Assembly: GCA_934102335.1 (NCBI GenBank)
Contig: CAKOSP010000001.1
Span: 110,197-174,196 of the forward strand
Direction: 5' to 3'
Length of the DNA stretch: 64,000 nucleotides
DNA from: an uncultured Bacilli bacterium
GTDB lineage: Bacteria > Bacillota_I > Bacilli_A > RF39 > UBA660
The notes beneath the pieces are model-generated. The model searched no databases. It was not told the origin of the DNA and was given only the letters and a program-made list of their open reading frames with translations. Position 1 is the first letter of the stretch. Every line of letters begins with the position of its first letter. The position numbers and the translations under genes were made by a program. Below are positions 21,433 to 24,907 of this stretch, one piece after another.

Positions 21433-21566
21433 TTACTTTTAAACAATGAAGTAGTTATGATTATCAAGTAATAAAATCCTAAAATCAAGGCAAATTTACC
21501 ATTATTTAATACCAATTTAATATTTTATATCAAATATGCTATATTCCGTGCAATCACAAAGAAAAT

Positions 21567-21598
21567 AAAATCTCATTGTAATATAATGGGATTTTTTT
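21567..21598 (+). terminator. Putative terminator downstream of helD
   Basis: AAATCTCAT-tgtaatata-ATGGGATTT (one G.U) followed by T7. Confidence 0.45.
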
Positions 21599-22251
21599 AG
21601 AGGAAAAATAAATTATAATGAATTATGTGAATGTTATGCTATATCAAGTACTAGAAAAGTAAAAACTTTAACAAGAAGTAGATAATTATTATGGATAGAT
21701 TTGATAATGTTATAAAAAGAAATATTTTAAATGAAGAATATTTCCAACCTTTACCTAGAACTAATCAAACAGGTTATATAGATTTTCAAATTTTATTTGA
21801 TAATTTCGATGAATTTTAACGAAAGATTAGATGTATTTAATGAAATTATAATTAAAAATGAGTGGATTTGATATAGCAAAGCTTATTCAAAAAAAGAAAA
21901 TGTAAAAACAATAAAAATAGTAAAATTTAAAGGTGATATAATTGTCATCTTTTTTTAACCTTTTTTAAATAAAATATTTTTTTGTTCATATAGTTAAATG
22001 GAAAATAAAAATTAAATAAAAAAATAATGAAAGAGTTGATCCTAATGAACAAAACATTAAATATTAATATATTTTACAAAGATGAAGGATGTACCATATT
22101 AGAAGTATTAGAACAGGATTTTAAAGATTTCTTTAATGATTGTATAAAAAAACATATTAAGTAGTTCACTTTGGATTCGATTTTGCTAATATATATTACA
22201 CGATTAGTTATATAAATTTAGCAACTTGAATCCTCCATTGGAGGAGATAAA

Positions 22252-23913
22252 ATGAATTATGCTTGTGGTATAAGTGGTTTATTACTTAAAGTATATAAAC
22301 CAGAAGAAATTGCAAAATATATTAGATTATCATTAGCAGATGAAGTTAAAGCAAATGGAGAAGTAAAACCAATCGATGAGAGTGAAAGTGTTACTAATCA
22401 AAGAAGATTAATGAATGAATTTATTAATCGAAATGGTAATGTAGGAGAACAATGTAAAGAATTTATTGATGATGGTGTTAGTGGTACTAATTTTGATAGA
22501 CCTGGATGGCTTAAATTACAAGAAGAAATGGAATCTGGGAAAATTAAAGTTGTAATTACTAAAAATTTATCAAGACTTGGAAGAAGTAATTTTGAATGTG
22601 GTTATTTTTTAGATTATTATTTTCCTGAAAACAATATTAGATATATTGCTATTCAAGAACAAATTGATACTGCAAATAACGAAAATTCAAATAATGAATA
22701 TGCCGCTTTAAATAATTTTATAAATGAAAAATATTCTCGTGATTTATCAAAGAATATTAAAAGAGTTTATAAAATTAAACAACAAGCAGGAGAATATATG
22801 GGTGGAAAACCTGTATATGGTTATATAAAAGATCCGAATGATAAACACAAACTAATCATTGATGAAGACTCAGCTAAGGTAGTAAAAAGAATATTTGACC
22901 TTTATTTACAATTACATTCTCAAAGTAAAGTAATGAAAATATTAACTGATGAAAAAATCCCAATACCAGAGGTGTATAAACAAACTAGGCGAGGAATCAA
23001 AGCAAAATACCCTTATGAATGGAATTATCATACAGTTAGAAATATTTTGAGAAATAGAATGTATATTGGCGATATGGTACAAAATGTACATATTAAAAAA
23101 AGTTTCAGAGAAAAGAAAATAATAAAAACAGCTAAAGAAGATTGGGTAATAGTAAAAGGCACTCATGAGGCAATAATAGATAAAGAAACTTTTGATAGAG
23201 TACAAAACTTACTAGATGCTAATTATAGGCAACCTGCAAAACCGTATGAAAGAACTTTTGGTGGAATTATGTATTGCCATGAATGTGGTCATAAAATTGG
23301 TGTCGGAAACCCTAAAAGGGATGATCGCCCAAAAGAAAAACAATATGTTTATACTTATTGTAATTATTATAGAAAGAATAGTGCTTACAACAAATGTACC
23401 CCACATACTATGAATTATAATAATTTGGAGAAACAATTATTAGAAATAATAACGTCAGTGTGTAATAAGTACATAAATTTAGTAGGATATGAAGATATAG
23501 TTGAAAAAAGAAAGAAAACGTTAAATACATATACTTATGATTTGGAAAAGAAAATTGGTAAATTAGAAATTGATATTAAAAGTATTGATTTAAAAATCGA
23601 AAAATTATATATGGATAGATTAGATGACATTATTACTTCAGATACATACAAAAAATTGACTGATAAATTTGAGGAACAAAAAAATATTAAGCAAAAAGAA
23701 ATAAGTGAATTAAAAATTAGTGTGGAAGAATATAAGAAAGATAATTCGATTGATGATTTATTAGAAACGCAAAAAATAGTAAAAGAATATCTTAAAACTA
23801 GAAAAAAAACACCAAGAGAATTAATTCTTAAAATTGTAGATAGAATAGAAATACATCAAGATAAAACCGTAGATTTATATTTTAAACTAAAGCAACTGAA
23901 TCAAGTTGTTTAA
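22252..23913 (+). CDS. Large serine recombinase (resolvase/invertase catalytic domain plus recombinase and zinc-ribbon domains)
   Basis: YIRLSLADE (catalytic Ser). DDGVSGTNFDRPGWLKLQEEMESGKIKVVITKNLSRLGRS. Cys cluster CHECGHK...CNYY. RBS ggaggag. Confidence 0.85.
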   Translation: MNYACGISGLLLKVYKPEEIAKYIRLSLADEVKANGEVKPIDESESVTNQRRLMNEFINRNGNVGEQCKEFIDDGVSGTNFDRPGWLKLQEEMESGKIKVVITKNLSRLGRSNFECGYFLDYYFPENNIRYIAIQEQIDTANNENSNNEYAALNNFINEKYSRDLSKNIKRVYKIKQQAGEYMGGKPVYGYIKDPNDKHKLIIDEDSAKVVKRIFDLYLQLHSQSKVMKILTDEKIPIPEVYKQTRRGIKAKYPYEWNYHTVRNILRNRMYIGDMVQNVHIKKSFREKKIIKTAKEDWVIVKGTHEAIIDKETFDRVQNLLDANYRQPAKPYERTFGGIMYCHECGHKIGVGNPKRDDRPKEKQYVYTYCNYYRKNSAYNKCTPHTMNYNNLEKQLLEIITSVCNKYINLVGYEDIVEKRKKTLNTYTYDLEKKIGKLEIDIKSIDLKIEKLYMDRLDDIITSDTYKKLTDKFEEQKNIKQKEISELKISVEEYKKDNSIDDLLETQKIVKEYLKTRKKTPRELILKIVDRIEIHQDKTVDLYFKLKQLNQVV

Positions 23914-24340
23914 AAAAAGCAAAAAGTTATCACCAAAAACCATGACACATAAATTTAGAGGGTCTAAAAAAGGTAATGAAGTAATTGTAGACGGTTCTTT
24001 TGACATTAATATTTGGTATTCTTATGATAATGATTCAAAAACTGCAGTAGATTCAAGAAATTTTACATATAGTGATACTATGAATATGAAATTGGAATCT
24101 TTAGATATTGTAGATGAAGATATTATAATTAAAGCTTTGAAACAACCTACAGTATCTGATGTCAAAATTAAAGATGGTTTAATTGAATTAAATATTGAAA
24201 AAGATCTTGGAGTAGAAGTAGTAGGCAATACAAAAGTTAAAATAGCTGTAGAAGATGATTTTGCTGATGAATACGATGAGATCATTGATTATGATTCAGA
24301 TCCAGAACTTGATAAAATTACTGATGATTATATAAATTAG
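23906..24340 (+). CDS. Hypothetical acidic protein (C-terminal D/E-rich tail), overlaps the recombinase stop
   Basis: 144-aa ORF. No family recognised. The start is uncertain (the ATG at 23942 is also possible). Confidence 0.45.
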   Translation: MFKKSKKLSPKTMTHKFRGSKKGNEVIVDGSFDINIWYSYDNDSKTAVDSRNFTYSDTMNMKLESLDIVDEDIIIKALKQPTVSDVKIKDGLIELNIEKDLGVEVVGNTKVKIAVEDDFADEYDEIIDYDSDPELDKITDDYIN

Positions 24341-24411
24341 ATATTACGAAAAAGTAATATCTTTTTTATTTGAATTGTTTATTGTAAAATAAAAATAGGG
24401 AAGTGATTGAA

Positions 24412-24822
24412 ATGAAAGTATTAAGTATTAAAGAACCTTTTGCTTCACTTATCTTAAATAAACATAAAACTATAGAAACAAGAAGTTGGAAAACAAATTA
24501 TCGAGGAGAATTATTTATTCACGCAAGTGGTAAAAATCTTGCAAAAAAGTTTTTAAATAATGATTACGTAAATGATTTAATTAAAAATATGAATATGAAT
24601 TATGGGTATATTATTTGTAAATGTAATTTAGTTGATTGTGTATACATGGATGATAAGTTTTTAGAAACAGTTAAAAAGGATATTAAAGAATATAGCTGTG
24701 GTGAATATAAAATTGGTAGATATGCTTGGATATTAAAAGATGTTGAACCAATTAAACCTATCTTAGCTAAAGGAAAATTAAATATTTGGAATTATGATAG
24801 CCAATATGAAATACTAAAATAA
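24412..24822 (+). CDS. ASCH domain protein
   Basis: MKVLSIKEPFASLILNKHKTIETRSW matches the ASCH/YqfB-like N-terminus. RBS gggaagtga. Confidence 0.7.
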   Translation: MKVLSIKEPFASLILNKHKTIETRSWKTNYRGELFIHASGKNLAKKFLNNDYVNDLIKNMNMNYGYIICKCNLVDCVYMDDKFLETVKKDIKEYSCGEYKIGRYAWILKDVEPIKPILAKGKLNIWNYDSQYEILK

Positions 24823-24829
24823 TTTTTTT

Positions 24830-24858
24830 AGCCGATAGGCTTTTTTTTTTTTTTTTTT
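24830..24858 (+). terminator. Short GC hairpin (AGCC-gata-GGCT) followed by an 18-nt poly(T) homopolymer
   Basis: Read directly: tttttttagccgataggc plus T18. Confidence 0.6.
24841..24858. repeat. T18 homopolymeric tract immediately upstream of the conserved leader of surface-protein paralog P1
   Basis: 18 consecutive T. Candidate slipped-strand (phase-variable) tract. Confidence 0.8.
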
Positions 24859-24907
24859 CTATGATATTATGAGTATATAATAGGAATGGAAAGTGCAAAA
24901 TATGAAT
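24859..24907 (+). promoter_or_regulatory. Conserved leader/promoter region shared at nucleotide level with 52836-52884 (upstream of paralog P3)
   Basis: ctATGATATtATGAGTATAtaATaGGAATGGAAaGTGCAAaATATgAATATGAAA versus ttATGATATcATGAGTATAgtATgGaAATGGAAgGTGCAAcaATATaAATATGAAA. Roughly 85% identical by eye. Confidence 0.6.

Follow-up and report, generated by a model that had tools for sequence, protein, structure and literature searches.

Elements that interrupt sporulation genes have been described in sigK, spsM, spoVFB, spoVR, gerE and yabG, and in the searchable full-text literature none has been described in cotE, the gene that is split by a 9.7-kb integrated element in the DNA analysed here, a stretch of 64,000 nucleotides (the window) of contig CAKOSP010000001.1, from an uncultured gut bacterium of the Bacilli. 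cotE encodes an outer spore-coat morphogenetic protein, and its mother-cell expression is established in Bacillus subtilis. The kind of system is well known; the target gene, the family of the recombinase and its partner, and the host lineage are new.

The gin element, located in gerE of Bacillus cereus ATCC 10987 (GirC and GirX; PMC5595907), is, like the cotE element, a non-phage element in a short mother-cell sporulation gene. Both have a large serine recombinase (LSR), a small partner gene, a short attachment (att) core with imperfect inverted repeats and a precise in-frame restoration of the target, which in our case is predicted. They differ in the target gene, in the recombinase, which is TnpX/TndX-like in the cotE element, in the partner, here a 39-aa protein of no detectable family, and in the cargo, which is different and highly variable; gin also has the extra recombinases girAB, in contrast to the cotE element, which is without girAB-like genes.

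The skin element in sigK (SpoIVCA/Skr in B. subtilis, CD1231/CD1234 in C. difficile) and SPbeta in spsM (SprA/SprB) share with the cotE element the insertion in a mother-cell gene and the attL...rdf-int-attR logic (PMC5025042, PMC4191935, PMC6957869), in which rdf stands for the recombination directionality factor (RDF) and int for the integrase, a layout published for SPbeta, skin and gin (PMC6957869, PMC5595907). Both skin and SPbeta are prophages or remnants of them, of 14-134 kb, whereas the members of the cotE family measure 3-11+ kb and are without phage genes, some having a conjugative backbone. Constitutive expression of the integrase is combined, in SPbeta and skinCd, with a directionality factor controlled by sporulation sigma factors (PMC5595907), and the same arrangement is proposed below for the cotE element. 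Similarly, yin, in yabG of Clostridium botulinum (PMC10747680), is a recently found element that has taken a new sporulation gene as its target and carries a recombinase and a small putative directionality factor. Unlike the cotE elements, which share one conserved recombination module and are spread over many species, yin is a prophage confined to a single strain.

By sequence, the closest characterised relatives of the recombinase are TnpX (Tn4451) and TndX (Tn5397), yet the identity is low (~32-34% over the full length), and the best phage LSRs reach ~32%. For insertion, TnpX and TndX use GA-centred sites that are only loosely defined, and they are not known to need a directionality factor or other partner for excision, or to be under cell-type control, whereas the window-type LSR uses one specific cotE site and always has the 39-aa gene beside it. 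XisF, from the heterocyst fdxN element of Anabaena, has in common with the cotE element the developmental excision in a terminally differentiating cell, proposed in our case; phylum and target differ.

The Split cotE Gene and Its Empty Site

The 144-aa open reading frame (ORF) starting with TTG at 23906, which a preliminary description of this DNA had presented as an acidic protein overlapping the recombinase, does overlap the LSR gene, by 8 nt, but it is the 3' part of CotE (PF10628, E 1.6e-25), aligned from profile position 39, with the first ~38 positions missing. The corresponding 5' part was located 9.7 kb upstream, at 14075-14203, by a tblastn search in which 5' fragments from relatives served as queries (E 4.5e-18). 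In the integrated state its frame reads into the element as far as a stop at 14240-14242, and the insertion point falls between codons 43 and 44. When 14203 is joined to 23951, a CotE of 172 aa results, matching profile positions 2-175 of 177 (Pfam, 1.5e-44). A natural protein (P0121, encoded on contig L008) differs from this predicted product by one residue, and the intact in-frame junction reads ...WVINH/KFRGS... at the protein level, the slash marking the join.

The limits of the element, 14204-23950 (9,747 bp), were obtained by comparing the window with empty-site contigs (L008-L014), whose flanks are 98.4-99.4% identical and from which precisely this segment is missing. L008 aligns with window positions 13830-14203 and 23948-24858 at ~99% identity, the two blocks overlapping by the three nucleotides CAT, so that in these contigs 14203 is joined to 23951 via the common CAT. 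The other six (up to 11.2 kb) show the order SDF-Sel1-cotE(intact)-ASCH-...-valS-hrcA-grpE. Empty-site contigs keep the ASCH gene, the 702-aa and 301-aa genes and valS, and they lack, together with 14204-23950, the helicase gene that had been called helD. ASCH, valS and the genes for surface proteins belong to the host and lie outside the element. From left to right, the element consists of attL, five cargo genes with "helD" as the last, a conserved 39-aa gene, the LSR gene and attR. We regard this structure, i.e., a cotE gene split by an element with these limits, as practically certain.

In a protein cluster at ≥90% identity, the split 132-aa form was counted on ~52 contigs, against 11 with the intact 172-aa form, the split allele being the majority form in the window's species; in the few sample places listed, split and intact alleles did not overlap. 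Both halves of cotE show a ratio of nonsynonymous to synonymous substitution rates (dN/dS) of 0.2-0.4 and are free of frameshifts.

A scan of species-representative genomes yielded 34 loci with related recombinases, all in uncultured gut metagenome-assembled genomes (MAGs), mostly labelled "Bacilli bacterium". Wherever the LSR was ≥63% identical and enough downstream sequence was available, the cotE 3' part followed it directly (21 of 21 related loci), and in nine of these loci the 5' part was found 3.0-11.3 kb upstream as a separate ORF of 50-55 aa with a CotE match. Joining the halves at CAT gives, in the window and in these nine loci, an in-frame CotE of ~170-180 aa; this restoration is predicted in silico and is also seen in the natural alleles of L008-L014, including P0121.

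Upstream of the cotE start (~20 nt), the motif GTAC-N17-CATA(C/A)ATT(A) was present in the 12 loci examined (12/12). In B. subtilis, -10 boxes of the CATA type characterise the promoters of sigma E and sigma K, the mother-cell sigma factors, and the cotE motif resembles what we take to be their -10 consensus.

Attachment Sites

The preliminary description had found no att sites by eye. They are nevertheless present at both ends of the element (Table 1), where an 11-mer, TTGGTGATAAC, stands in inverted orientation (14214-14224 and 23926-23936). These are its only two copies in the 64-kb window, 0.01 being expected. The base composition of the window does not change where the element begins and ends, and in a generic repeat search of 13.9-24.5 kb the true terminal repeat went unranked among AT-rich chance matches; since such chance repeats swamp a generic search, it is understandable that the sites were missed.

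The predicted attB junction is GTTTTAGGATGCTGGGTAATTAATCATAAATTTAGAGGGTCTAAAAAAGG, and that of attP is AAAAAGTTATCACCAAAAACCATGACACATCACTTGGTCGTTGGTGATAACCAATAT. The attL arm is kept across 10 loci, and both sites are kept in at least 10. In attL the conserved pattern is GGxTGxTGGGTxATxAATCAT on the host side, followed by CxCTTGGTxGTTGGTGATAA in the element; in attR it is TTATCACCAA...CACAT in the element, followed by AAxTTTAAxGG in the host, the attR arm starting 12 nt after the end of the LSR gene. The element ends are imperfect inverted repeats, which together would make attP. In some relatives, among them L007, the element arms form perfect 17-bp inverted repeats with a 10-bp gap that has the CA of CAT at its centre, a position that fits the crossover dinucleotide expected for a serine recombinase.

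Three other loci deserve separate mention. In L026 (11660-11745) the attR half-site is doubled, with two copies of TTTTTTATCACCAACGGTAATC 58 bp apart, which may be the scar of a tandem or earlier insertion. In L032 (4361-6291) the cotE 5' part and the element arm of attL are followed directly by the small gene and the LSR gene, and no attR was found in the 78 nt between the LSR and the contig end; in this case, the recombination module may lie at the opposite end of the element. The contig of L047 starts exactly at the attL junction (positions 1-30, CAT followed by GTCTTGGTCGTTGGTGATAAC), which could be an assembly break caused by a mixture of integrated and empty sites in the sample, or a coincidence.

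The Recombination Module

The LSR contains the Resolvase (PF00239), Recombinase (PF07508) and Zn_ribbon_recom (PF13408) domains of Pfam, that is, the catalytic serine domain, the recombinase domain and the zinc ribbon expected of a large serine recombinase. The catalytic motif is YIRLS27, and R25, S27, D73/D74, R108 and R111 are invariant in eight aligned homologues. The enzyme thus looks complete and active, and its earlier description as a complete recombinase with a catalytic serine holds. NCBIfam models matched below their cut-offs, CcrC (SCCmec) with 117.5 bits (cut-off 900) and XisF partially, with 92.7 bits (cut-off 375). No relatives of the LSR were found in IMG/VR.

Upstream of the LSR gene lies the interval 21433-22251 (819 bp), which is, as previously stated, the longest stretch of the window free of ORFs of at least 100 aa, and which contains the two small ORFs reported in it (21691-21819 and 22045-22164). 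It had been considered a decayed spacer, a description too simple for the whole of it. In its left part, no significant conservation in other species was detected left of ~22023 by blastn and tblastx against all loci, so that 21433-~22020 is without counterpart, and a Rfam scan of the spacer gave nothing significant. The 42-aa ORF in this part (MDRFDNV...) was rejected as a gene, related loci having no homologue and its PHROG match being weak (E 0.0013). The right quarter, in contrast, is kept in other species and carries a -10-like motif, a conserved 39-codon gene and a hairpin leader.

The 39-aa gene stands directly 5' of the LSR gene in every locus, including those of a distant clade that targets valS. 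Its length is fixed and, judging from a median dN/dS of 0.23 at dS ~1, it is under purifying selection. Pfam, PHROG and PADLOC gave no match for the protein; a word-indexed search returned near-identical copies only, and an exhaustive HMMER search returned only 10 clusters, one with a 61-aa protein and the other nine with proteins of 38-42 aa. The motif CATAnnnT, usually followed by TAA, precedes the small ORF in 21 of 22 loci, surrounded by sequence that is otherwise unrelated; its distance from the ORF is mostly 29-44 nt, and 58 nt in the window. Counting both strands, the window contains only six CATANNNTTAA sites. The assignment of this motif, as of that upstream of cotE, to a mother-cell promoter is putative.

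Between the small gene and the LSR gene, the GGATTC/GAATCC arms of the leader hairpin are invariant in 13 loci (the window and L003, L005, L015, L016, L018, L020, L023, L026, L029-L031 and L047). The folding z-score of the leader RNA is -3.1 in the window and -2.6 to -3.1 in four of five loci. RNAalifold recovered only the invariant 6-bp helix and detected no compensatory changes in it. The hairpin overlaps an anti-Shine-Dalgarno/Shine-Dalgarno hairpin (TCCTCC/GGAGGA), and the leader may serve to control translation or, as a DNA repeat, to bind a protein.

Table 1. Features of the cotE locus and its surroundings (window coordinates).
Feature	Position	Strand	Description
cotE promoter-like region	14021..14054	+	GTAC, spacer, CATACATTA (14046-14054); ribosome-binding site GGAAGGTGA (14061-14069)
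cotE 5' part	14075..14203	+	codons 1-43, TTG start; Pfam CotE E 1.2e-14, profile positions 2-43
attL	14175..14228 (site 14201-14224)	+	host arm ends GGATGCTGGGTAATTAATCAT; element arm CACTTGGTCGTTGGTGATAAC; core CAT 14201-14203; L008 breaks exactly there
cotE-intervening element	14204..23950	+	9,747 bp; missing from contigs L008-L014, flanks ~99% identical
Cargo: GT4 glycosyltransferase + kinase-like (APH/TCAD9) fusion	14535..16562	+	Pfam; sigma-70-like promoter 14451-14480 (promoter scan)
Cargo: guanylate-kinase-like P-loop protein	16537..17151	+	Pfam Guanylate_kin 1.5e-8
Cargo: NUDIX + ATP-grasp fusion protein	17165..18787	+	Pfam; PADLOC PDC-S07 3.9e-16
Cargo: short pyrophosphatase-like protein	18846..19205	+	Pfam 2e-8
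Cargo: UvrD-family helicase ("helD")	19228..21432	+	Pfam; inside segment absent from empty-site contigs
Non-coding spacer	21433..22020		helicase terminator hairpin ~21570-21600; 42-aa chance ORF 21691-21819
Conserved -10-like motif CATATAGTTAAAT	21987..21999	+	5' of 39-aa gene
39-aa gene, candidate RDF	22045..22164	+	39 codons; purifying selection
LSR leader	22173..22245	+	long hairpin GGATTC...GAATCC; adjoining TCCTCC/GGAGGA hairpin over ribosome-binding site
LSR, TnpX/TndX-like	22252..23913	+	553 aa; Pfam; PDB TnpX catalytic domain 3.8e-23; PHROG integrase 1.2e-93
attR	23921..23975 (site 23926-23950)	+	element arm AAAAAGTTATCACCAAAAACCATGACACAT; host arm AAATTTAGAGGGTC; core CAT 23948-23950; GTTATCACCAA at 23926-23936
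cotE 3' part	23951..24340	+	codons 44-172 + stop; Pfam CotE
ASCH gene	24403-24822
T-box	30507-30674		upstream of valS

Cargo, Relatives and Mobility

The window's element carries no relaxase or transfer genes detectable with Pfam, and its matches to PHROGs are generic (integrase, helicase, NUDIX, glycosyltransferase) and do not make it a prophage. On this gene content, it is classed as a non-phage integrative element. Its cargo (14535-21432) recalls parts of nucleotide-centred "conflict systems" (GT4-conflict, TCAD9/APH, guanylate-kinase-like, NUDIX with ATP-grasp, pyrophosphatase-like), and the UvrD helicase has weak GajB-like matches; PADLOC gave only weak or partial matches on the window's cargo, and no defined defence system was reached.

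From locus to locus the cargo is entirely different, and phage genes were found in none of the loci examined. Relatives carry queuosine-related and methyltransferase genes, an AAA ATPase, ASCH with GNAT, MBOAT, a WYL regulator, or a class II aminoacyl-tRNA synthetase (L020) and a radical SAM enzyme; in L005 and L006 a relaxase, a NikA-like protein, ArdC and a sortase are present. In two relatives (L023, 7831-8927; L025, 8721-9791), ASCH and a GNAT acetyltransferase gene lie inside the element, just past attL, ASCH being in the window's species the host gene directly 3' of cotE.

The hosts belong to an uncultured lineage of gut Bacilli with ~25% GC, whose related MAG assemblies measure ~1.2-1.5 Mb. 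LSR identity grades from 99% to 63%, always beside the cotE 3' part, and it is incongruent with that of CotE: in the pair L003/L023, the LSRs are 94.7% identical and the CotE proteins 52%. This incongruence points to horizontal spread and, together with the coexistence of split and intact alleles, indicates a mobile element and not a fixed chromosomal feature. The preliminary description had suggested that relatives with the same genes at the same position, with no size polymorphism and a conserved chromosomal recombinase, would speak against an insertion. The comparison has two sides: the position of the recombinase by the cotE 3' part is conserved, as would be the case for a developmental recombinase, but size, cargo and presence vary.

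Proposed Programmed Excision and Its Alternatives

The cotE element lies inside a sporulation gene, has its own recombinase near one end, and shows a short core with inverted repeats, as sporulation elements do. Taking into account that its layout matches theirs, and considering the regulation known for SPbeta and skinCd, it is proposed that the element undergoes programmed excision in the mother cell, with the 39-aa protein providing directionality. Thus, the LSR would synapse attL and attR and exchange strands at the CA of the common CAT, a circle with attP would be released, and cotE would be rejoined in frame. This process would take place in the sporulating mother cell, with the 39-aa protein as directionality factor, expressed from a CATA-type promoter like that of cotE, whereas the element would be kept in the spore (forespore) genome. 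We consider this reading on balance probable, well short of certain; the preservation of both cotE halves in the window and nine other loci and the predominance of the split allele support it. The preliminary description had mentioned a sporulation-type intervening element in brackets, which was the right kind, the element being inside cotE.

Several points weigh against programmed excision. The intact cotE contigs come from other strains, two of which (L009 and L012) are also without the 736-aa gene located downstream, so that the empty sites prove insertion polymorphism and not developmental excision. The attP junction pattern had no matches in IMG/VR and the JGI metagenomes, collections that hardly contain this organism. 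Purifying selection on the halves of cotE could predate recent insertions, and the promoter motifs agree with sigma E/K only in the CATA---T core of what we take to be the B. subtilis consensus. Since B. subtilis cotE mutants still sporulate, a simple knock-out of cotE could be tolerated. Besides, since TnpX and TndX are not known to need a partner, the 39-aa protein may have another role.

These data could also be accommodated by an ordinary integrative element that knocks out cotE, is lost by rare random excision and leaves an altered or missing outer coat, with no developmental programme. Its presence is polymorphic within the species, some relatives have the relaxase, sortase and ArdC of conjugative or mobilisable elements, excision by TnpX-like enzymes is not known to be under cell-type control, and the excision product was not detected in the two collections mentioned. 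We hold it to be unlikely, given that in the window and nine other loci the halves remain intact, in frame and under purifying selection, that the split form is the majority allele of the species, and that a CATA-type motif like the cotE promoter precedes the small gene in almost all loci. In addition, all the characterised elements in mother-cell sporulation genes excise during sporulation (PMC4191935, PMC5595907, PMC5025042). More improbable still would be a domesticated, immobile cassette, in which the LSR is now a host sporulation gene, like spoIVCA of the defective skin, and the "cargo" is trapped chromosomal DNA. The fixed position of the LSR beside the cotE 3' part over the whole identity series, a cargo of housekeeping or metabolic appearance (e.g., the synthetase of L020) and the lack of transfer genes in the window's element would suit such a cassette, but strains of the same species without the element exist, LSR and CotE identities are incongruent, the cargo is fully turned over between close LSR relatives, and the L005 backbone resembles that of an integrative and conjugative element. 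As for the arrangement initially put forward, an island of ~21.4-30.5 kb between helD and valS with a decayed spacer, the recombinase, the acidic protein, ASCH and surface-protein cargo, the empty-site contigs refute it, and we give it hardly any credence. Its genes are all present and adjacent, ASCH following the recombinase and the 144-aa ORF and the T-box and valS appearing at 30.5 kb as described, and the 736-aa gene is strain-variable; nonetheless, ASCH, the 702-aa and 301-aa genes and valS stay in the empty-site contigs, from which 14204-23950 is missing, and the element is bounded by att sites at 14.2 and 23.9 kb. An integrated element was correctly recognised, but it runs upstream to 14204 and not downstream to 30.5 kb; "helD", which had been taken as a flank, is inside it together with the four genes upstream, and the surface-protein genes are outside.

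Other Features near the Locus

The gene of a putative 736-aa surface protein (24848-27100) is a separate presence/absence polymorphism of 2.25 kb, independent of the cotE element. In L009 and L012, position 24847 is joined to 27101 just past the poly-T of the ASCH terminator, and no att-like sequence or repeats were found at the ends of this indel; L049 has at this position a 671-aa gene and rpsP instead. Further downstream, the Rfam PGK RNA motif (RF03040) was detected at 27330-27420 (+), with 61.7 bits (gathering score 50.8), and lies 5' of the gene of the 702-aa membrane protein (27531-29639).

A Sister Clade in valS

Recombinases 44-54% identical to that of the window, with the same small gene upstream, form a sister clade (L033-L046, e.g., L036:11656-13570, L039:11629-13420 and L043:11641-13350) placed directly 5' of a valS 3' part that starts at residue 268 (..VKITPAHD). 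This arrangement was found in 13 MAG loci from Clostridia, "Tenericutes" and Erysipelotrichaceae, and the matching site in the window's own valS is at ~31510-31550. No valS 5' part was found within 10 kb upstream; the valS fragment of L037 is frameshifted, and that of L036 has an ATG and an element-encoded leader. Furthermore, the cotE-targeting L005 and the valS-targeting L039 (positions 1-9900 of each) have ORFs of like size and order 5' of the small gene and the LSR gene, those of L005 being annotated as NikA-like, relaxase, SUFU-like and sortase; this similarity suggests that recombination modules are exchanged on a single backbone of conjugative or mobilisable type.

It might tentatively be imagined, with more doubt than confidence, that the 39-aa gene and the LSR form a portable cassette for integration and excision, used in uncultured gut Bacillota by a whole family of elements (cargo, mobilisable and conjugative) and specialised on two targets, cotE and valS. 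If this were true, the cotE clade would be a developmental switch spread over many species, with several kb of cargo, possibly defence-related, deleted from the mother cell while the coat gene is rebuilt; the valS clade, in the middle of an essential gene, would require that the aminoacyl-tRNA synthetase be regulated or split, or that the element bring a copy to compensate for it.

Significance

With this element, cotE, the central gene of outer-coat morphogenesis, joins the short list of interrupted sporulation genes given at the outset. The set of attP, attB, LSR and candidate RDF is a possible recombination tool. For genome annotation, the consequence is that gene callers present cotE as two unrelated small ORFs, and that "helD" and its neighbours would wrongly be counted as core chromosome; likewise, the sporulation capacity of such MAGs could be misjudged from coat genes that appear "broken". 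The arrangement is widespread, being present in many species of a very AT-rich gut lineage as a compact recombination module with interchangeable non-phage cargo.

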